Shown here: in pieces, positions 11,441 through 48,545 of the stretch
Position numbering within the stretch: the stretch's first letter is position 1
How the letters are laid out: the number at the start of each line of letters is the position of its first letter
Origin: Patescibacteria group bacterium
GTDB taxonomy: Bacteria > Patescibacteriota > Patescibacteriia > UBA2591 > JAQUPP01
Assembly: GCA_028716665.1 (NCBI GenBank)
Contig: JAQUPP010000001.1
Span: forward strand, 413,046-477,045
Length of the DNA stretch: 64,000 nucleotides
Direction: 5' to 3'
Position numbers and translations under genes: made by a program
The notes under the pieces: model-generated
The model's database searches: none
Told to the model about the DNA's origin: nothing
What the model saw: only the letters and a program-made list of their open reading frames with translations

Positions 11441-11473
11441 ATCATTTTGTTAAGACCTGCTTAAAGTTTTAAT

Positions 11474-11544
11474 TGCGGGGGGGGGATTCGAACCCCCAAC
11501 CTCCAGGTTATGGGCCTGGCGAGCTGCCACTGCTCTACCCCGCG
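11474..11544 (-). tRNA. initiator tRNA-fMet (CAT)
   Basis: Begins CGCGGGG and ends CCCCGCA-A (C1:A72 mismatch); alignable base for base with E. coli tRNA-fMet; anticodon CAT. Confidence 0.8.
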
Positions 11545-11795
11545 TCATTAAGAAATCGATTAGTTATTCTTTTCTTTTCCAAATATCCTTTTGTCGATTT
11601 TAGAAAATATTCTCTTTTATAAGCTTCGTTTTTATCGGAATATTCTTCATGATAGACTAACTTCCATGGTCGGCGAAATTTTGTCGCCCAATCTTTGCCA
11701 CGTTGATGTTCACTAAATCTTCTCTGTAAGTTAGATGTGCAACCGATATAAAATTTATTATCTTTTAAACTTTGTAATATATAAACGTAATACAC
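11535..11795 (-). CDS. GIY-YIG nuclease family protein (small, YhbQ/UPF0213-like), copy 1
   Basis: VYIL...KFYIGCT...R..EH motif set. GTG start. The last 10 nt including the stop overlap the 5' end of tRNA-fMet. Confidence 0.8.
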   Translation of the reverse strand: MYYVYILQSLKDNKFYIGCTSNLQRRFSEHQRGKDWATKFRRPWKLVYHEEYSDKNEAYKREYFLKSTKGYLEKKRITNRFLNDAG

Positions 11796-11808
11796 AATAG
11801 ATTTTAAT

Positions 11809-11867
11809 TTATGGGCCTGGCGAGACCCGAAGGGTGGCCCTTGGCCCTGCCACTGCTCTACCCCGCG
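11809..11867 (-). repeat. partial duplicate of tRNA-fMet (positions 1-37) carrying a 22-nt GC-rich double-hairpin insertion
   Basis: CGCGGGGTAGAGCAGTGGCAG-[GGCCAAGGGCCACCCTTCGGGT]-CTCGCCAGGCCCATAA, then divergence from the tRNA. Confidence 0.7.
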
Positions 11868-12118
11868 TCATTAAGAAATCGATTAGTTATTCTTTTCTTT
11901 TCCAAATATCCTTTTGTCGATTTTAGAAAATATTCTCTTTTATAAGCTTCATTTTTATCTGAATATTCTTCATGATAGACTAACTTCCATGGTCGGCGAA
12001 ATTTTGTCGCCCAATCTTTGCCACGTTGATGTTCATTAAATCTTCTCTGCAAATTAGATGTGCAACCGATATAAAATTTATTATCTTTTAAACTTTGTAA
12101 TATATAAACGTAATACAC
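11858..12118 (-). CDS. GIY-YIG nuclease family protein, copy 2 (tandem 323-bp unit)
   Basis: One amino-acid difference from copy 1. Its 3' end overlaps the partial tRNA copy just as copy 1 overlaps the intact tRNA. Confidence 0.8.
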   Translation of the reverse strand: MYYVYILQSLKDNKFYIGCTSNLQRRFNEHQRGKDWATKFRRPWKLVYHEEYSDKNEAYKREYFLKSTKGYLEKKRITNRFLNDAG

Positions 12119-12131
12119 AATAGATTTTAAT

Positions 12132-12190
12132 CTATGGGCCTGGCGAGACCCGAAGGGTGGCCCTTGGCCCTGCCACTGCTCTACCCCGCG
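12132..12190 (-). repeat. second partial tRNA-fMet 5'-half copy with the same 22-nt insertion
   Basis: Same sequence as 11809-11867 apart from one substitution in the anticodon loop; no GIY-YIG gene follows. Confidence 0.7.
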
Positions 12191-20943: not shown

Positions 20944-21543
20944 ATGGCTCTTTTAAATTTTTTAGGTTTTTTAGGTCTTTGGTATGTTAAAGTAGTGATT
21001 TCGTTGTTTATTATTTTCATGATAATTTGTTTTATTCAGTCTATTGGGAATAAAATTTTGAAAAAACGTTTTCCCGATGACGCAGCTTTCATTAAGTACA
21101 TGAGACAATTCTATGGTTTCAAAGTTCTCCTTGATTATGCTGAATCAAAGGGTATAACCGTGAAAATGGGTGGAAGAAGAAATGGAAGTTGGGATATGGA
21201 AAATAAAATTATTACGATTGATATTGATACTGTTTTTAAGGAAAAATATCGGTTAATGGGGATGGCATTTTTCGCTCATCAAATCGGACACATTGAATCG
21301 TTTGATCCGCAAATTTCCGAATGCAGAAATAAATTAAGGGAAAAAAATTCCGATACGTACTTCATCTGTTACTATGAAGAAAAAATGGCATGGGAGGCAG
21401 GAAGTAAAATTTTGGATTGTTTGGAACTATTAATTCCCGAATATTGGCGATATTATGAACGTCAATGTCTAAATAATTTATGCCCTGATTTTCCTTGTCC
21501 CTTTTTCGAAAAGAATAATACCAAAGAGCCTCAAACAACATGA
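20944..21543 (+). CDS. membrane-anchored DUF955 (ImmA/IrrE-like) domain protein, degenerate HQxxH
   Basis: N-terminal TM, KGITVKMG...ITIDIDT...FAHQIGHIE pattern of ImmA/IrrE metallopeptidases, Cys-rich C-terminus. Confidence 0.45.
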   Translation: MALLNFLGFLGLWYVKVVISLFIIFMIICFIQSIGNKILKKRFPDDAAFIKYMRQFYGFKVLLDYAESKGITVKMGGRRNGSWDMENKIITIDIDTVFKEKYRLMGMAFFAHQIGHIESFDPQISECRNKLREKNSDTYFICYYEEKMAWEAGSKILDCLELLIPEYWRYYERQCLNNLCPDFPCPFFEKNNTKEPQTT

Positions 21544-21665
21544 TAACGTGAAATTAAAAAATGCCCTCTGAAATCAGAGGGCATTTTAATATCTTGACAA
21601 AAACCGAAAAATGTGCTTAAATAATAGTAATCCAGACAATAAAGTTTGGAAACCAGGAGGAAATA

Positions 21666-22391
21666 ATGGATCTTTTAAAATCATTTATATTGGCAGTATT
21701 TATTGTTTCAATACCAAAGATATTAGAGGGAATGAGTTGGGTTCTTGCGTATATGGAAGTATTCATGAAATATTGGGTTTTTAGGCCGATTTATTACAAT
21801 CAGGTTTCTCGTCGACTTTATCCCAGACAAAATCGGAAACTGAAAAAATATCTGAGAAATTCACCGGTTTTTTCCAAGCTTTTGGCTTATGCCACATTAA
21901 ATGGGATAAAAGTGGAGAAGGGATGTTCTCGCAATCCTAACTGTGATTGGTCTGCTTGTACTTCAATCAGTACAGTTAAAGTTTACAATGTTAATGATGT
22001 TTATAGATTTAAACGTCAAGAAGAGGGGGTTTATTCTTTCGCGCACGAAATAGGGCATATTGAATTTCACAGAAATAAACCTACTCCAAAATGTTGGGAT
22101 GAGATGGAAAAAATTGAAGATCCTCCGCTCAGTTTTAAAGAAAAACTTGAAGCCTGGATAAAGAAAGATTCTGACAAATCTTGCGGATGTTTTTGGGACG
22201 AGTGGATGGGGTGGATATATGGTTATAATGCTCTCAGATCCGCGGGCGTGCCAATTAATGAAAAAAAATATTGGCGAATTGCTTTGAATTGTATTCCCCA
22301 ACATGAAGTTTGTCCTCTTTGGCCATTCGGATGCGAAAAGTTTAACGCCATTCAAACTCTAGAGAAGAAATATAGAGAAAAATTAAAATAA
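21666..22391 (+). CDS. membrane-anchored ImmA/IrrE family metallopeptidase (HEIGH)
   Basis: Paralogue of the preceding gene with an intact HExxH (FAHEIGHIEFH); Cys-rich C-terminal region. Confidence 0.5.
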   Translation: MDLLKSFILAVFIVSIPKILEGMSWVLAYMEVFMKYWVFRPIYYNQVSRRLYPRQNRKLKKYLRNSPVFSKLLAYATLNGIKVEKGCSRNPNCDWSACTSISTVKVYNVNDVYRFKRQEEGVYSFAHEIGHIEFHRNKPTPKCWDEMEKIEDPPLSFKEKLEAWIKKDSDKSCGCFWDEWMGWIYGYNALRSAGVPINEKKYWRIALNCIPQHEVCPLWPFGCEKFNAIQTLEKKYREKLK

Positions 22392-22553
22392 AAAGCCTCC
22401 TGAATTATAGGGGGCTTTTTTATATTATAATAATGCATTAATTTAAAAATTGGTCTTGACATTTTTGAAAAAATATGCTACAATAATATCAATACTGAGA
22501 AAGTTTTTGGCATAAAGCCAATGATTTAAAACTCGGTATAAATGGGGGAAACG

Positions 22554-23210
22554 ATGGATAAAAAATCTATCGGCGCAGAAACGGCCAAATTGGCTGGTCT
22601 GCATATGGACTGCAATATGAAGATCAAAGATCTTCAACTCGGTTTAGACGAATATGAATGTTTTCTAAACCTGACTTCAGAACAGCGTCAACAAGCCTTA
22701 GCACCTTTCAAAAAGGATTCGCGCTTCAAATTGGCTAATGCGTTTGAAATTGTCGTGCCAAAGGGGTATGACCACGCCACTCGTTTGACTGTTTTCAAAG
22801 CAACACACGGTAAAGAGTTTTATTATTACAATCCTGAAATCACTGACAAGAATTTTGATAAAGCGACGACAAAACTTTTACCCGGTCGGAAATTTAAAGT
22901 AAAAGTTTTTCAGATTACGGAAACAGTAAATTCAGAGGACTGTTTGAAATTTCTCAAAACGCAGAAAGCTGTTTTAACCGGAGCTCAGGGCGCGTCATTG
23001 GTTTATGAACTTGCCAAAAACAAGTTGCCAAAGGGCCATTGGTATATTTCATTTGATAAGAAAGATTCTCTTTGGATTGAATCTGGCGGTGTTCACCGCG
23101 TGCCGGGCGTCTTCCGCCGCTCGGATGGCGACTTCGAGTTCTACCTCGGCAACTTTGAGCATGGCTGGGACGACGACTGCTGCTTGCTCTGCTTCTGCGA
23201 CTGTGATTGA
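22554..23210 (+). CDS. hypothetical protein with GC-rich 3' end encoding a Cys-rich tail
   Basis: SD GGGGGAAACG-ATG. The last ~125 nt is conspicuously GC-rich and encodes ...GWDDDCCLLCFCDCD; terminator hairpin follows. Confidence 0.45.
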   Translation: MDKKSIGAETAKLAGLHMDCNMKIKDLQLGLDEYECFLNLTSEQRQQALAPFKKDSRFKLANAFEIVVPKGYDHATRLTVFKATHGKEFYYYNPEITDKNFDKATTKLLPGRKFKVKVFQITETVNSEDCLKFLKTQKAVLTGAQGASLVYELAKNKLPKGHWYISFDKKDSLWIESGGVHRVPGVFRRSDGDFEFYLGNFEHGWDDDCCLLCFCDCD

Positions 23211-23286
23211 TTAGAAAATTAAATTCAGACCTCCTGTTTCGACAGGAGGTCTTTTTTATTTATAAAAAAAGTGTAGAATATTAATC

Positions 23287-23556
23287 ATGCCCGCCCAAAT
23301 TTTTTATTACGTATACATTTTGCGCAGTTTAAAAGATAGTAAATTTTATATTGGCTTTACAAAAGATTTAAGAAGAAGACTAGAAGAACACAATAATAAA
23401 ATGTCTACATCTACTAAATCAAGAGCGCCATTTACTTTGGTTTATTATGAAGCATATCTTCATTCAGGAGATGCCAAAGAACGAGAAAGATTTTTTAAAT
23501 CTGGGTGGGGTAGAAATTATATTAAAAAATCACTTAAACGTTATTTATGTCAATAA
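23287..23556 (+). CDS. GIY-YIG nuclease family protein, copy 3
   Basis: YYVYILRS...KFYIGFT motif set. The stop overlaps the murC start. Flanked by the two halves of a 34-nt palindrome. Confidence 0.8.
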   Translation: MPAQIFYYVYILRSLKDSKFYIGFTKDLRRRLEEHNNKMSTSTKSRAPFTLVYYEAYLHSGDAKERERFFKSGWGRNYIKKSLKRYLCQ

Positions 23557-25022
23557 AAAATTTAGGCGGGAAAAAAATACATTTTATCGGCTTGGGTGGA
23601 ATCGGGGTAAGCGCTCTGGCAAAAATGATGATTCAACAGGGCAAAAAAGTTTTTGGCTCTGATTTGAATTCTTCCGAAATAATCAAGAAACTGGAAAAAA
23701 TGGGAGTTAAATTTTATCAAGGCCATAAAGCGGAAAATTTGTCAGCTGATATTGATTTGGTTATTTATTCGCCGGCCGTGGAAAAAAATAATCCGGAAAG
23801 AATAAAAGCGAAAAAATTATCCATTCCCGAATTTTCTTATCCGGAATTTTTAGGAGAATTAAGCAAAGAAAAATTCACTATTGCTGTCAGCGGCACGCAT
23901 GGCAAATCAACCACTACGGCGATTTTGGGTTTGATTTTGGAACAAGCCAAATTGGATCCGTTAGTGATTGTCGGAAGTAAGGTGCCTCAATGGAATGGAA
24001 ATTTACGCATATCACGGACTAATACGGACTCAACGCGGACCAACACGGACAGTCAGCGTAAGTCAGTGTCAGGTCAGTGTCAGTCTGTGTTTGTGGTGGA
24101 AGCTTGCGAATGGCGGGCGCATATGTTGAATTTATCGCCCAAAATGATTGTTTTGAATAATTTGGAATTGGATCATACTGATTATTATAAAGACATCGAT
24201 CATTTAATTAGAACTTTTAAAACATATATTAAAAAATTGCCCAAAGACGGAGTTATAATTTTAAACGTTGACGATGTTAATTTGACCAAGCTTAAATCAA
24301 AAAACAAGACCATAACTTTTGGCATTAAAAATCACGCCGAAGTAATGGCGAAAAATATTATTACCAAACACGGCGAGCAAATTTTTGATTTATGTTTTAA
24401 GGGTAAAACTTACAATTTCCGGTTGAAAGTTCCGGGAATTTTTAATGTTTATAATGTTTTGGCGGCAACAGCCGGCGCTTTGGCATTGGGCGTTAAACCC
24501 GAAATAATTAAAAAATCCGTAGAAAATTTCTACGGGATTTGGCGAAGATTTGAGAAAATAGGGGAATATAAAAAAGCGATTATTATTTCCGATTATGCTC
24601 ATCATCCGACTGCTGTTTCCGGCACTATTCAAGCGGCTAAAGAATTTTACCCAGGAAAAAGAATCGTGGCAATATTTCAGCCTCATCATCACAATCGGAC
24701 TAAAAAATTATTTAAGGAGTTTATCAAGTGTTTTAAAGGCGCTGACCTGACAATCATTTCGGAAATTTACGATGTAGCGGGTCGAGAAGAAGAAAAAGAT
24801 CAAGATGTCAGTTCAAAAGATTTGGTTAAAGCAATCCGCGCCAGATATGAAAAAATTCCAAATTCCAAATTCCAAATTCCAAATTCTAAAAATGTTTTAT
24901 ATGCTAAAAATTTAGTAGAAGTTAAACAACTAATATTAAAGAACATAAAGCCAGGTGACGTAATCCTTGTCATGGGCGCAGGGGATATTTATCAAATTGC
25001 CAATGATTTGGTAAAAAGATAA
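23547..25022 (+). CDS. murC: UDP-N-acetylmuramate--L-alanine ligase MurC
   Basis: GIGGIGVSALA and GTHGKSTTT motifs and the Mur ligase C-terminal domain. Contains two odd in-frame repeat insertions (see findings). Confidence 0.85.
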   Translation: MSIKNLGGKKIHFIGLGGIGVSALAKMMIQQGKKVFGSDLNSSEIIKKLEKMGVKFYQGHKAENLSADIDLVIYSPAVEKNNPERIKAKKLSIPEFSYPEFLGELSKEKFTIAVSGTHGKSTTTAILGLILEQAKLDPLVIVGSKVPQWNGNLRISRTNTDSTRTNTDSQRKSVSGQCQSVFVVEACEWRAHMLNLSPKMIVLNNLELDHTDYYKDIDHLIRTFKTYIKKLPKDGVIILNVDDVNLTKLKSKNKTITFGIKNHAEVMAKNIITKHGEQIFDLCFKGKTYNFRLKVPGIFNVYNVLAATAGALALGVKPEIIKKSVENFYGIWRRFEKIGEYKKAIIISDYAHHPTAVSGTIQAAKEFYPGKRIVAIFQPHHHNRTKKLFKEFIKCFKGADLTIISEIYDVAGREEEKDQDVSSKDLVKAIRARYEKIPNSKFQIPNSKNVLYAKNLVEVKQLILKNIKPGDVILVMGAGDIYQIANDLVKR

Positions 25023-25056
25023 TTGGGATTTATTTGAAAAAGTTTTCCACAGATTA

Positions 25057-25083
25057 TTAGCACTCGGACTTGACGAGTGCTAA
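25057..25083. promoter_or_regulatory. CIRCE operator (HrcA binding site) overlapping a TTGACG-N17-TACAAT promoter
   Basis: Perfect TTAGCACTC-N9-GAGTGCTAA inverted repeat upstream of hrcA-grpE-dnaK. Confidence 0.85.
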
Positions 25084-25240
25084 TTTTTAGTCTACAATAT
25101 TTTTTTGTATGCCAGGTAGTGAAAATTTGGTTAATAATCAATAAAGACAAGATTTTTACAAGCTGGCTTTTTAAAGAAATAAATTTATATTTTAAAAATA
25201 AATATAAAATTTAATAAATATCAAATTTCTACTACCTGGT

Positions 25241-25975
25241 ATGTTAACTCAAAGGCAAAATCAATTGCTTAAAACCATTGTCTCTCAATATATTAAAACC
25301 GCGGAGCCGGTTAGTTCAGAGTCATTGGCTGATAAATATAGATTGTCGGCCCAAGGCCGATCCGCCTCGGGCGGAAAAATAAGTCCGGCTACTATTCGCA
25401 ATGAGATGATGGAATTAACCAAAGAAAATTTTTTAATCCAGCCGCATACTTCGGCCGGCCGTATTCCCACTGAGAAGGCCTATCATTATTATATTAAAAA
25501 TTTTTTACAGCAAGAAGAAGTCAGCCAAATTGAAAAAAGAAAATTAAACAGCGCCAGAAAAGAAAATCAGTCTTTGGAAATTTCAGCCAAGAGAATCGGC
25601 GAGAAAATAGCGGAGTTGACCAACGGATTGGTTATTTTGGCTTTTGATAAAGATAATTTTTATTACACCGGCCTTTCTTCCTTGTTTAGCCAACCAGAAT
25701 TCAATCAAATGGAAGTTGTTTATAATGTTTCGCAAATTATAGATCATTTGGATCAAACCGTTGCCAAAATTTTTGACGAAATAGAAAGCAATCACCGCGT
25801 TTTTTTGGGACGAAGCAACCCGTTTGGTGATTTTTGCGGAACAATTTTAATCAAATATCATACACCAAATCAAAAAAGGGGCGTAGTATTGGGTCTTTTG
25901 GGACCGATGAGAATGGATTACAACAGAAATATCGCTTTAATAGAATATGCCAAAGAGATATTGGACAAAGTTTAG
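25241..25975 (+). CDS. hrcA: heat-inducible transcription repressor HrcA
   Basis: N-terminal wHTH alignable to B. subtilis HrcA (SPATIRNEM) with an 11-aa in-frame insertion; CIRCE lies upstream. Confidence 0.85.
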   Translation: MLTQRQNQLLKTIVSQYIKTAEPVSSESLADKYRLSAQGRSASGGKISPATIRNEMMELTKENFLIQPHTSAGRIPTEKAYHYYIKNFLQQEEVSQIEKRKLNSARKENQSLEISAKRIGEKIAELTNGLVILAFDKDNFYYTGLSSLFSQPEFNQMEVVYNVSQIIDHLDQTVAKIFDEIESNHRVFLGRSNPFGDFCGTILIKYHTPNQKRGVVLGLLGPMRMDYNRNIALIEYAKEILDKV

Positions 25976-25992
25976 AAATTAAAAATTTTATT

Positions 25993-26286
25993 ATGCCAGG
26001 TAGTGAAACTTTGATAACGATTATGTTTTATTATGTCTATGTTTTACAAAGTATAAAAAATAATGGCCTTTATGTGGGTTATACTTTAGATTTAAAGAAA
26101 AGATTACAAGAACATAATCGTAAATTAAATTTTTCTACCAAAGCAAATATCCCATGGAAACTTATTCACTATGAAGCCTATCTTAATAAAGACGATGCGC
26201 AACGTCGAGAGAAATATCTCAAAACTTCTCAAGGAGCCAGATTATTAAAGCGCATGCTTAAAGAATATTTTTATAATAATAAATAA
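25993..26286 (+). CDS. GIY-YIG nuclease family protein, copy 4 (between hrcA and grpE)
   Basis: MFYYVYVLQS...LYVGYT motif set; ATG embedded in the left terminal inverted repeat. Confidence 0.7.
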   Translation: MPGSETLITIMFYYVYVLQSIKNNGLYVGYTLDLKKRLQEHNRKLNFSTKANIPWKLIHYEAYLNKDDAQRREKYLKTSQGARLLKRMLKEYFYNNK

Positions 26287-26306
26287 TCAAAGTTCTACTA
26301 CCTGGT

Positions 26307-26837
26307 ATGTCAGATGAAGAAATAAAAAAATTGCAAGAAGAAATCGAATTAATGAAGCAACAAGCGGAAGAATATTTAAACGGCTGGAAAAGAACCAAGG
26401 CCGATTATCTTAATCGCGAAAAAGAAATTGATAAAGAAAAAATTGAATGGATAAAATTCGCCAATTTGGAATTAATTTTGAATTTTTTGCCGATTATGGA
26501 CAGCTTTGATCACTCGGTAAAAAATTTAACGGAAATAGAAAACAGTGGTTTGACAAGCTCACCACGAGATGGTTCGACTTCTTCGACAAGCTCAGGGCAA
26601 GCAAGCTCACCACAAGGCGAGTGGGCAAATGGCGTTTTAAAAATCAAAGACCAATTTGAAAGTTTTTTAAAAGCGCAGGGCGTTGAAAAAATAAAAACTT
26701 TGGGAGAAAAATTCGACCCCATGTTTCACGAAGCAATTGGCAAACAAGGGGAAGAGAATGAAATTGTTGAAGAAATTCAAAGCGGATACGTGATGCACGG
26801 CCGAGTTATCAGACCGGCGAAAGTAATAATTAAGTAA
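26307..26837 (+). CDS. grpE: nucleotide exchange factor GrpE
   Basis: GrpE coiled-coil and beta domain (FLPIMDSFD, FDPMFHEAIG) with a 23-aa in-frame insertion. Confidence 0.85.
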   Translation: MSDEEIKKLQEEIELMKQQAEEYLNGWKRTKADYLNREKEIDKEKIEWIKFANLELILNFLPIMDSFDHSVKNLTEIENSGLTSSPRDGSTSSTSSGQASSPQGEWANGVLKIKDQFESFLKAQGVEKIKTLGEKFDPMFHEAIGKQGEENEIVEEIQSGYVMHGRVIRPAKVIIK

Positions 26838-26868: not shown

Positions 26869-28809
26869 ATGTCAAAAATTATAGGAATTGACTTAGGAAC
26901 ATCTAACTCAGCTGCTTCTTACATGGAAGCGGGCAAATCAAAAATAATTCCCTCAGCCGAAGGGACAACTTTAGTTGGCGGAAAAGCTTTTCCGTCATAC
27001 GTCGCTTTCACAAAAGAAGGCGAACTTTTAGTCGGTGAACCGGCTCGTCGTCAAGCAGTGGCTAATCCGGAAGGCACAATTTTGGCCGCAAAAAGAAAAA
27101 TGGGCACTGACTTCAAATATAATATTTTCGGCAAAGAATACACGCCTCAGCAAATTTCCGCTTTTATTTTGCAAAAAATAAAAAAAGACGCGGAAATGTA
27201 TTTGGGCGATAAAGTGGAAAAAGCGGTTGTGACCGTGCCGGCTTATTTTAATGACGCGCAAAGACAAGCAACCAAAGATGCCGGAGCGATTGCCGGACTT
27301 GAAATCGTCCGTTTGGTTAATGAACCGACCGCGGCCAGTTTGGCTTACGGTTTGGATAAAGTTCAGGAAAAAGATCAGCAAGTTTTGGTTTTTGATCTCG
27401 GCGGCGGAACATTGGATGTGACGATTATGAATTTCGGCCAAGGCGTTTTTGAAGTTCGTTCCACTTCCGGCGACACCAAACTCGGCGGCACGGATATGGA
27501 TGAATCTTTGATAAATTATATAATTGATGAATTTAAAAAAGAGCAAGGCGTTGATTTGAAAGCTGACAAAATGGTAACCCAGAGAGTCAAGGAAGCGGCT
27601 GAAAAAGCGAAAATTGAATTGTCTTCAGCTCTGGAAACGGAAATTAATTTGCCGTTTATTACCGCCACCAACGAAGGACCGAAACATTTATTGATGAAAA
27701 TCACCCGGGCGAAATTGGAAGAATTGGTTAAACCGATTGTTGATCGCTGTCGTGTTTCAATTGAACAGGCGATTTCAGACGCCAAACTTACCCCCGCTAA
27801 TATTGAAAAAGTTATTTTAGTCGGCGGTCCGACCAGAATGCCGATTGTCCAGAAATTTATTGAAAATATTTTCGGCCCGAAAATCGCTCGAGGCGTTGAC
27901 CCGATGGAATGCGTGGCCATGGGCGCGGCAATTCAAGGCGCGATTTTAGCCGGCGAAACAGAAGTCAAAGACGTTCTATTATTGGACGTCACGCCGCTTA
28001 CTTTAGGCATTGAAACTTTAGGCGGAGTAATGACGCCGATTATTGACCGCAATGCGACTATTCCAACTTCAAAATCTCAGGTTTTTTCTACTGCAGCTGA
28101 CAATCAAACTTCAGTGGAAATTCATGTTTTGCAGGGAGAAAGACCGATGGCCGGCGACAACCGGACTTTAGGTAGATTTATTTTGGACGGCATTCCGCCG
28201 TCTCCAAGAGGCATTCCTCAAGTTGAAGTCGGTTTTGATTTGGACGCAAACGGTATTTTAACCGTCACGGCAAAAGATAAGGCCACTTCAAAATCTCAGC
28301 ATATTACCATTAAAGATACTTCCGCGCTTTCCAAAGAAGAAATTGAAAAAATGAAAAAAGCAGCCGAGCAATTTGCCGCTGAAGACAGAAATAAAAAAGA
28401 AATAATCGAATTGAGAAATCAATCCGACACTTTAATTTATACTTGCGAAAAAAGTTTAAAAGACGGCGGCGATAAAATTCCGGCTGATGTCAAAAAGCAA
28501 GTTGAAGACAAGGTTGCTGAATTGAAAAAAGTCAAAGACGCGAATGATATTGAAGTGATTAAAAAAGCGATTCAAGATTTGGGCGACACGGTTCAAAAAA
28601 TCGGCGCGGCGATGTATGGTTCGACCTCTTCGACAGGCTCAGAGCAAGCAGGCTCACCACAAGATGGTTCGGCCTCTTCGACAGGCTCAGAGCAAGCAGG
28701 CTCACCACAAGCCCCGGGTGCTCAACCAGAAGCCGGTCCGACAGAAGAAAAAAAGAAGGATGAAGGACCGATTGAAGGGGAATATACGGAAGAAAAACCT
28801 AAATCCTAA
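26869..28809 (+). CDS. dnaK: molecular chaperone DnaK (Hsp70)
   Basis: [28 protein letters not shown] signatures; 646 aa with two tandem 16-aa repeats in the C-terminal tail. Confidence 0.95.
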
Positions 28810-48092: not shown

Positions 48093-48207
48093 CCTTACGG
48101 GCGAAGAAAATAATTTGCCAAATTTTGAAAATTTGTTATAATAATTTTAATATTGCGGGATCGTCCCTCGGCCGTAGCCAGTAGGCTACTGCCTACGGGC
48201 GAGGCTA

Positions 48208-48462
48208 ATGGTAAATAAAACAATGCATACAATTTATGTTTTAAGAAGTCTGAAAGATGATAATTTATATATAGGCTGTACTTCTGATTTACAGAAGAGA
48301 TTAAGAGAACATAGAAATAAAAAAGTTTTTTCTACTCGCAATAGGTTGCCAATGAAGTTAATTTATTTTGAAAATTACCCTGATAAATATGAAGCTTATA
48401 GAATGGAAAGATTTTATAAAACCGCTAAAGGTAAAAAAATAATTAAAAACAAAATAATATAA
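48208..48462 (+). CDS. GIY-YIG nuclease family protein, copy 5 (immediately 5' of tRNA-Gln)
   Basis: IYVLRS...LYIGCT motif set; flanked by 12-nt direct repeats TGCGGGATCGTC. Confidence 0.75.
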   Translation: MVNKTMHTIYVLRSLKDDNLYIGCTSDLQKRLREHRNKKVFSTRNRLPMKLIYFENYPDKYEAYRMERFYKTAKGKKIIKNKII

Positions 48463-48469
48463 TAAATAA

Positions 48470-48545
48470 TGCGGGATCGTCTAATGGTAGGACTCCAGCC
48501 TTTGGAGCTGGCTATGATGGTTCGAATCCATCTCCCGCAGCCAAA
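48470..48545 (+). tRNA. tRNA-Gln (TTG)
   Basis: U1-A72 acceptor typical of bacterial tRNA-Gln, anticodon loop CTTTGGA, GGTTCGAATCC T-arm, encoded CCA. Confidence 0.8.

Follow-up and report, generated by a model that had tools for sequence, protein, structure and literature searches.

Single-domain GIY-YIG nucleases of the Ssn family, proteins of 94 aa, act on single-stranded DNA, in which they bind to a hairpin repeat (NTS/SRM) and cleave a few nucleotides upstream of it, with no activity on duplex DNA, on RNA or on the opposite strand (Chenal et al., Nat Commun 2025, PMC11893778). The repeat is present on both sides of the gene in 42% of the homologues, and the authors noted that the arrangement NTS-ssnA-NTS resembles an insertion sequence; in the main text of that paper transposition or mobility is raised only as a hypothesis, and neither target sites nor Patescibacteria are mentioned (PMC11893778). 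From the rRNA genes of Patescibacteria, GIY-YIG open reading frames (ORFs) have been described in non-intron insertions that have seemingly not spread by homing (PMC11270868). Here we analyse a locus in a 64-kb stretch from the genome of a Patescibacteria group bacterium (assembly GCA_028716665.1, contig JAQUPP010000001.1, positions 413,046 to 477,045; the whole stretch is referred to as the window, G+C 34.8%), in which the gene order is murC, CIRCE operator and promoter, hrcA, a small GIY-YIG gene, grpE and dnaK. The start codons of hrcA and grpE each carry an insertion bounded by terminal inverted repeats (TIRs) and a short direct duplication, and the two are very likely members of one miniature transposable-element family, the copy at grpE containing the GIY-YIG gene and the copy at hrcA being ORF-less.

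The locus is similar to the Ssn units in several respects: a protein of about 90 aa (86-96 aa here) with a GIY-YIG domain only, a gene lying between repeats capable of forming a stem, many dispersed ORF-less copies of the repeat near genes, and repeat variants that co-occur with protein variants. It differs from them in that 4-bp duplications, empty sites, arrays and identical copies at different loci document its transposition, and also in its target (start codons), its hosts (Patescibacteria) and its TIR sequence, which is unrelated to NTS. Together with the ORF-less derivatives, these duplications, empty sites and arrays are the first proof at sequence level of transposable-unit behaviour for a single-domain GIY-YIG nuclease with stem-forming flanks, a point that the 2025 paper had only hypothesised. 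Full-text searching of the literature gave no account of TIR-bounded GIY-YIG elements with duplications, the nearest reports being the two cited above (PMC11893778, PMC11270868); the insertions in rRNA genes are compatible with being of the same kind as the elements described here.

Two precise insertions in the hrcA-grpE operon

The sequence ATGCCAGGTAGTGAAA is found on the forward strand at 25109 and 25993 and TTCTACTACCTGGTATG at 25227 and 26293, with no further copy of either elsewhere within the window. Shuffled sequence would be expected to give 0.02 matches (right arm) and 0.43 matches (left arm) at three mismatches or fewer, and the observed arms lie far above this. A repeat search returned the pairs 25993-26015/26286-26308 (23 nt, 87% complementary) and 25109-25142/25209-25242 (34 nt, 74% complementary), the actual repeat being a TIR of 20 bp on each side of both elements. 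Each arm pair reads CCAGGTAGTGAAA(N)TTTG...CAAA(N)TTCTACTACCTGG, directly adjoined on both sides by TATG, and the TIR consensus of the family is CCAGGTAGTGAAAATTCGAC / GTCGAATTTCTACTACCTGG. At positions 10-11 the arms of the window are unequal (GTGAAA versus GTAGAA), an asymmetry conserved throughout the family. The stop codon TAA of the GIY-YIG ORF overlaps the right TIR by the first TIR base and lies 20 nt upstream of the grpE ATG (Table 1).

The original prediction for this locus, made from the sequence alone, had placed the start codons of hrcA and grpE inside inverted repeats. All four arms are real, but the ATGs of hrcA, of grpE and at the head of the GIY-YIG frame belong to a direct 4-bp repeat, TATG, outside the inverted repeat; it is this target-site duplication, overlooked at the time, that made both host start codons seem part of the arms. 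The left arm expected at about 25107 in the hrcA leader is present and starts at 25109, the repeats bracketing the GIY-YIG gene measure 20 and not 17 bp, and the second pair, given as 25107-25244 around an empty untranslated region of 138 nt, is likewise genuine and free of an ORF, although the element itself is shorter (128 bp, 25112-25239). The short frame in the leader still begins M-P-G-S-E-N as described (MPGSENLVNNQ*, 25109-25144). The CIRCE and promoter ahead of the leader were found as predicted, Pfam bore out the identities of hrcA, grpE and the GIY-YIG gene, and the latter is indeed the fourth GIY-YIG copy; the window has five in all. The match of the hrcA product to TIGR00331 is under the curated cut-off.

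Evidence for insertion comes from a relative whose HrcA homologue (P0001) is 93% identical to that of the window and whose contig, L201, agrees with the window in gene order, at a nucleotide identity of 80-94%. The hrcA leader of L201 reads CIRCE...TACAAT-attgga-TATG-ttaaca and its hrcA-grpE junction ...attttatTATGccagatgaag (also given as ...aaattttatTATGccagatgaag), each with one TATG and without the arms. The window is longer than L201 by ~135 bp and 314 bp, exactly at the two TATGs, and deleting each element plus one TATG recreates the arrangement of L201. Since L201 has a single TATG per site, both elements of the window are precise insertions with a 4-bp target-site duplication. The arms are also absent from the more distant relatives L202, in which the gap between hrcA and grpE is 11 nt, and L203 and L204, which have a PDDEXK_3 gene at this junction. 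The hrcA and grpE sites are insertions of an element family defined by TIRs and duplication, a point on which hardly any doubt is left. Of the two possibilities that the original prediction had offered, a mobile element or an RNA pairing, the TIRs of a mobile element carrying the GIY-YIG gene are therefore retained and an ancestral regulatory RNA is not: in the comparison that it had proposed, with a relative lacking the GIY-YIG gene, both arms are missing too, which argues against the regulatory reading. Its suggestion that the AT-rich stretch in the hrcA leader derives from the same element is supported by the shared TIRs, the TATG duplication and the absence from the relative, in the sense that this stretch of 128 bp belongs to the family as an ORF-less member.

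Table 1. Features of the hrcA-grpE region, with positions in the window
Feature	Position	Strand	Remarks
CIRCE operator, TTAGCACTC-N9-GAGTGCTAA	25057-25083	+	Read directly; host context, outside the element; kept in relative L201
hrcA promoter, TTGACG-17-TACAAT	25070-25098	+	10/12 matches; host context
Left TATG duplication copy, ORF-less element	25108-25111	+	ATG at 25109 opens an 11-codon frame; single TATG in L201
ORF-less element, 128 bp, MITE-like (miniature inverted-repeat transposable element)	25112-25239	+	TIRs 25112-25131 and 25220-25239; absent from L201
Right TATG duplication copy, ORF-less element	25240-25243	+	Holds the hrcA start codon, 25241-25243
hrcA, host gene	25241-25975	+	Pfam PF01628 and PF03444; 93% identity to P0001
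Left TATG duplication copy, ORF-bearing element	25992-25995	+	ATG at 25993 in frame with the GIY-YIG ORF; single TATG in L201
ORF-bearing element with GIY-YIG gene, 310 bp	25996-26305	+	TIRs 25996-26015 and 26286-26305; absent from L201
GIY-YIG nuclease ORF, 87 aa from a conserved internal ATG	26023-26286	+	Pfam PF01541, E=3.3e-16
Right TATG duplication copy, ORF-bearing element	26306-26309	+	Holds the grpE start codon, 26307-26309
grpE, host gene	26307-26837	+	Pfam PF01025, E=2.6e-37

Two side observations concern the relatives. The ATG of hrcA in L201 is situated only 7 nt after the -10 hexamer TACAAT (L201 3985-4003; window 25093-25111), and the hrcA mRNA of L201 is for this reason probably leaderless. 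The gene at the hrcA-grpE junction of L203 (3729-4130) and L204 (1145-1546), a relative whose HrcA is 55% identical, encodes a PDDEXK_3 (PF13366) nuclease of 133 aa and overlaps the grpE start, so that this kind of site is occupied there by a small nuclease gene of another type.

Distribution and coding capacity of the element family

A scan of one genome per species with the TIR pattern CCAGGTAGTRRAANTTTG gave at least 120 matching stretches. By our own arithmetic ~280 matches are expected by chance across the collection, and unpaired hits in assorted phyla are at that level. Paired hits, i.e. a plus-strand match followed by a minus-strand match 60-320 bp apart, came, among the matches listed, nearly all from metagenome-assembled genomes of Patescibacteria, with a few labelled otherwise; the labels include Parcubacteria, Portnoybacteria, Doudnabacteria, Saccharibacteria, Berkelbacteria and Sungiibacteriota. 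On viral contigs no paired elements were found, only ten single, unpaired matches, which is the chance level. Pooling the loci of the genome scan with metagenomic loci resulted in 143 non-redundant elements in size classes of about 50-90 bp, 120-150 bp and 300-330 bp, the ORF-less forms spanning ~50-160 bp. An exact flanking duplication was found for 114/143, of 4 bp in 99 and of 3 bp in 15. More than 20 different sequences are duplicated, among which TATG or its complement CATA dominates and TGGA, GAGG, CTCA, TTGA and AAAG also occur; in some ORF-less copies the duplicated sequence (GAGG, AAGG or CCTC) resembles a ribosome-binding site. The family has the hallmarks of a transposable element with TIRs (insertion sequence or MITE in a broad sense): TIRs of 20 bp, a duplication of fixed length and variable sequence, an empty site and copies at unrelated loci.

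One Saccharibacteria genome has identical 130-bp copies at two of its loci (L011, L016), L175 contains two element copies, and in head-to-tail arrays neighbouring elements share single copies of the duplication; these identical copies and arrays are signs of recent activity of the family. On several contigs elements precede consecutive genes, as they do in the window. A subfamily whose TIR starts with CCGGG duplicates TGGA, just 3' of a conserved ...DFSIMAYYW coding motif and often in arrays. Its sites lie directly after the coding motif ...GDGKVDLVDFSIMAYYW (L147 2395-2793, L149 2321-2473, L183 2326-2477 and others), and its arrays consist of head-to-tail hairpin copies of 73-75 bp plus one coding copy. 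Judged by eye, we take this motif to be dockerin-like.

All elements of 307-351 bp that were examined have a single ORF, of 86-96 aa, which occupies the whole space between the TIRs. Seven such elements of 309-323 bp from different genomes (window and genome loci) encode one GIY-YIG ORF each; the seven proteins are 63-72% identical to the window copy, and the outer 13 bp of the TIRs are near-identical across all seven, with a one- or two-base variant in 3/7. A search of metagenomes by protein alignment alone, in which TIRs were ignored, recovered 591 relatives among 600 candidate stretches, and of the best 80 of these 591 relatives 70 are TIR-bounded, at 307-351 bp. PF01541 is the only Pfam domain, making this a single-domain protein, and the residues Y6, Y17, G19, R27, E30, H31, N32 and E51 (GIY, YIG, Arg, Glu-His-Asn, Glu) are invariant in alignment A1. 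Profile searches against the PDB matched the UPF0213 structures 1ZG2 and 1YWL (UPF0213 E=8.6e-9) and, more weakly, SLX1; TIGR01453 gave only a weak match below the cut-off.

Read in the orientation of the ORF, duplications of the ATG type are TATG (or ATG, CATG, AATG) and never CATA, from which it follows that coding copies are co-oriented with the gene whose start codon they occupy. The left-hand ATG is in frame with the nuclease ORF in 31/62 elements; an in-frame left ATG as a universal property was rejected, the arrangement being lineage-specific (~70% in the CCAGG subfamily, 0/18 in CCCCG). Many 'GIY-YIG nuclease family proteins' annotated in Patescibacteria genomes, together with the odd N-terminal extensions assigned to them, are such elements.

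No recognised transposase (DDE, HUH, serine or tyrosine recombinase) was found inside the elements, whose sole ORF is that with the GIY-YIG domain, and among the 200 loci examined no larger element or conventional transposase lies between such TIRs. Pairs more than 400 bp apart, considered as candidates for a larger parent element, all turned out to be neighbouring separate elements.

Preference for start codons

The ATG of the duplication opens a host ORF of at least 60 aa in 68 of the 74 ATG-type elements, half of these 68 being ORF-less and half coding (34 each), and the genes concerned are unrelated housekeeping genes. A random sample of nine host proteins comprises DprA, TyrRS, UvrB, an RmlD-like reductase, DnaX, a polysaccharide synthesis enzyme, a thioredoxin-reductase-like flavoprotein, a zinc-ribbon protein and a GARS-like ligase; in the majority, the alignment to the Pfam model starts near the first residues. 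Under a model of random insertion among non-coding TATG sites, with genic insertions subsequently lost, the reconstructed pre-insertion sequences (273 T-ATG sites that are start codons and 679 intergenic TATG/CATA sites that are not) give an expectation at start codons of at most ~29%, compared to the 92% observed. Such insertions are survivable because the duplication rebuilds the ATG. As a choice of target, start codons are unusual in the reduced genomes of Patescibacteria.

No extended consensus surrounds the target TATG, and a Shine-Dalgarno sequence is present upstream of only 3/74 targeted starts. Two other ideas were dropped: an outward internal promoter (TGnTAnnnT) exists in only a few of the ORF-less copies, and mimicry of the element end at the target (TATG followed by CC) was seen in 10/67 cases, three of which are the next element of an array.

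Co-variation of the arms

The inverted repeat stops sharply at position 20. Its outer 13 positions are nearly constant, and where variation occurs (positions 3, 4, 6, 14 and 17-20) the arms change jointly. In the protein-anchored set, which is free of the bias caused by TIR ascertainment, 132 joint changes compare to 12 disagreements between the arms. On the sense strand the disagreements comprise 2 G-U against 7 A-C; as there is no excess of G-U, the constraint is Watson-Crick identity as for DNA and not that of an RNA helix. The arms therefore do co-vary, as the original prediction had wished to see examined, but in the Watson-Crick sense only. Free co-variation points either to a stem joining the ends that is under selection or to the copying of one end from the other, and is not a requirement of a duplex site bound by a transposase.

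In 139/143 elements positions 10-11 read GA in one arm but AG in the opposite one, and both polarities with respect to the ORF occur. When a single strand folds, a distortion of G-T plus A-C would result at nine pairs from the foot, by which the hairpins of the top and the bottom strand would differ.

Effects on the host genes and alternative explanations

The insertions have put hrcA and grpE behind a predicted stem of high stability, and folding of the transcripts is certain. The left-hand ATG keeps the native upstream context and signals, and the right-hand copy rebuilds the start codon of the host gene. Ribosomes starting at the left-hand ATG would open the 5' arm and free the right-hand ATG, at hrcA by translating the 11-codon frame and at grpE by reading through the GIY-YIG frame, and the translation of hrcA and grpE probably depends on them.

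That the arms are instead long-range RNA pairings which evolved to sequester the starts of hrcA and grpE, as an RNA thermometer or similar device, is extremely improbable. Both start codons are indeed located at the 3' foot of a predicted stem, that of hrcA at the foot of 24 pairs in a leader with a fold of -34.5 kcal/mol (z = -4.4), the operon is a heat-shock operon with CIRCE, and the arms co-vary; a heat-shock leader with a start codon beside a stem and a conserved CIRCE is also what recalls ROSE and fourU thermometers and the CIRCE/HrcA control. However, the arms are missing from the orthologous loci, even where HrcA is 93% identical (L201) and also in L202 and L203, and the same arms and duplications stand before unrelated genes in many lineages, the ORF-less copies in both orientations relative to the host gene. 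The stem of ~24 bp is moreover too stable: in isolation it is predicted at -29 kcal/mol at 37°C, -24.6 at 45°C, -19 at 55°C and still -13.9 (about -14) at 65°C, so that no melting is predicted in the range of 30-45°C for which the original prediction had asked. Known RNA thermometers are far weaker. The sense strand lacks the G-U excess of an RNA helix, and Rfam (the whole window at the gathering threshold, and 25000-26400 at E<=1) returned only tRNAs and one chance-level hit. A dedicated heat-sensing role of the stems, and with it the thermosensor sequestering both starts that had been predicted, is not supported, and the hairpins before many genes of Patescibacteria are to be annotated as ORF-less forms of the element and not as regulators. 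A milder version, in which true transposon copies have since been co-opted and the stems determine how strongly hrcA and grpE are expressed or how they are coupled (e.g. by RNase III processing, or by translation coupled to a reading frame upstream), is still improbable, if less so. It would fit the tolerance of insertions in an essential operon, the left-hand ATG in frame with the GIY-YIG ORF here and in half of the elements, the short distance from the stop codon of this ORF to the grpE ATG and the co-orientation of coding ATG-type copies with their host genes; against it, the relative L201 manages without the insertions, and the in-frame arrangement is confined to certain lineages, being missing altogether from the CCCCG subfamily.

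A third explanation leaves the transposition itself untouched and concerns the enzyme: the elements could be ordinary non-autonomous MITEs moved in trans by a transposase encoded elsewhere, with the GIY-YIG gene as a passenger or as a selfish add-on, serving e.g. homing or retention. We consider this unlikely, though less so than co-option. GIY-YIG enzymes are generally known as hydrolytic nucleases with no known transposase activity, ORF-less copies are abundant, and other GIY-YIG paralogues of the window are mobile without these TIRs. Classical MITEs and their DDE parents (Correia, IS630- or IS5-derived) also share with the present family the TIRs, the short duplications, insertion near genes, RNA hairpins and ORF-less copies that match or outnumber the coding ones. 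Against this explanation, the TIRs bound seven eighths of the best 80 protein relatives, the ORF fills the element exactly across proteins at 61-82% identity with the catalytic residues kept, and the only coding partner seen in the 200 loci is the 310-bp nuclease unit, with neither a larger TIR-bounded element nor a DDE transposase. Free co-variation of the inner seven TIR positions is unexpected for the binding site of a DDE transposase, and the two-base asymmetry and the strong preference for start codons likewise set the family apart from classical MITEs. Finally, the closest characterised relatives of the protein recognise hairpin repeats around their own genes (PMC11893778).

The GIY-YIG nuclease as a candidate mobilising enzyme

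We slightly favour the view that the GIY-YIG nuclease is itself the mobilising enzyme. The two arms would pair in single-stranded or cruciform DNA, and the nuclease would recognise the stem by its outer 13 bp, which are conserved and contain the G-T/A-C distortion, and would introduce a nick at the adjoining tetranucleotide, by analogy with the Ssn nucleases, which cut beside their hairpin repeats. Excision and insertion would be completed by host repair, replication or ligation. Cuts after TATG at both ends of one strand would release the element together with one TATG, leaving the empty site as it was, and re-insertion after another TATG would give the appearance of a duplication, as in peel-and-paste transposition; alternatively, staggered cuts of 4 nt followed by fill-in may be involved. 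It is furthermore possible, and we put this forward only tentatively, that the 87-aa protein represents a mechanistically new class of transposition enzyme that recognises the stem of its own TIRs in single-stranded or cruciform DNA and cuts at the tetranucleotide, and that the family actively targets start codons, taking over the host's initiation signals for the nuclease and handing the host a rebuilt ATG. Units of ~310 bp would then be the smallest autonomous transposons known. The element is in any case very compact (two 20-bp TIRs and a 264-bp gene), and GIY-YIG-driven transposition could for this reason be tested directly with a few oligonucleotides and one small protein.

Several points weigh against a mobilising role of the nuclease or against active targeting. 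To our knowledge, no GIY-YIG enzyme catalyses strand transfer, and a nuclease alone explains neither integration nor the 4-bp duplication. Physical linkage of the ORF to the TIRs would also be expected for a long-term passenger gene. The repeats of the Ssn units fold as local hairpins to the left and right of the gene; here it is the ends that pair with one another, and the gene is placed in the loop. The TIR-bounded family is regarded as Ssn-like on the basis of profile matches, which do not separate cd10448 from the neighbouring UPF0213 clade (cd10456). Three of the element samples were chosen by TIR similarity, and complementarity in the 143-element set is inflated accordingly. Lastly, one candidate mechanism for the strong preference for start codons was put to a test: a TANNNT motif 5-9 nt upstream is more frequent at targeted starts than at all called starts (43% versus 21%, p=0.001), but not significantly so compared to matched T-ATG controls (43% versus 31%, p=0.15), and the idea of leaderless promoters as targets, which suits hrcA and murC of the window, is accordingly not significant against this control.

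Among the other small mobile systems, IS200/IS605 and REP/RAYT (HUH Y1 enzymes acting on hairpins in single-stranded DNA) resemble the family in their very small size, the adjacent 4-nt target and the abundance of ORF-less hairpin derivatives. As in IS200/IS605, a stem is likely recognised and not a duplex sequence, and excision of the element together with one tetranucleotide would restore the empty site (peel-and-paste). The enzyme here is of the GIY-YIG and not of the HUH type, and no covalent-intermediate chemistry is known for GIY-YIG; IS200/IS605 elements have subterminal hairpins and neither TIRs nor a duplication, both of which are present here. Homing endonucleases of the I-TevI type are also selfish mobile genes with a GIY-YIG catalytic domain. 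They possess a separate DNA-binding domain, recognise sites of ~10-40 bp and spread by homologous repair, without TIRs or duplications, in contrast to the present family with its catalytic domain only, its 4-bp target, its TIRs and its duplications.

A link to the Ssn family itself was found outside the Patescibacteria. The A1 profile aligns with a plasmid-borne GIY-YIG protein of Azospirillum (hhalign 98%, E=1.7e-13), a homologue of the window protein with CGTCATCCCCGCGAAGGCGGGGATCCAGG repeats on its flanks; these repeats agree with the NTS consensus as published. On plasmid AZO_p3 of Azospirillum lipoferum (L215) the NTS-like CGTCATCCCCGCGAAGGCGGGGATCCAGG repeats form an inverted pair on each side (470-570 and 895-990) of a 97-aa GIY-YIG gene that lies between sufB and sufC, i.e. 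an Ssn-type unit within the suf operon.

Other repeats and insertions in the window

The third GIY-YIG gene of the window (23281-23569, ORF 23287-23556) is 48% identical to the TIR-bounded one and has no recognisable TIRs. It separates the murC promoter (TAGAAT) from the murC ATG and overlaps the start of murC. In L201 this gene is absent and TAGAAT-N8-ATG runs straight into murC. It therefore represents another start-codon insertion, of a different or decayed type.

Two further GIY-YIG arrangements are associated with tRNA genes. On the minus strand (11545-12190) there are two tandem units of 323 bp, each consisting of the 5' half of tRNA-Met through the anticodon plus A, followed by a GIY-YIG ORF; the tRNA-Met half ends in CATA, the complement of TATG, and is split by a G+C-rich insert of 22 nt, and an intact tRNA-Met (11473-11544) follows the two units. 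At 48157-48543 a second copy of the first 19 nt of tRNA-Gln precedes the fifth GIY-YIG ORF (48208-48426...); this copy is split by a palindromic insert of 39 nt, and the intact tRNA-Gln (48470-48543) lies after the ORF.

Short G+C-rich in-frame insertions (e.g. TSSPRDGSTSSTSSGQASSPQG) are present in grpE (26535-26612), dnaK (28623-28707) and murC (~24000-24070). In the opposite frame they read ...LALSLSK..., and those in grpE and dnaK are absent from L201 (+72 and +66 bp in the window). They resemble a further family of small repeats, one tolerated within coding sequence. Finally, the region 21460-23212 comprises ~1.75 kb in the window compared to ~100 bp in L201 and holds a cysteine-rich ORF of 222 aa (22542-23210).

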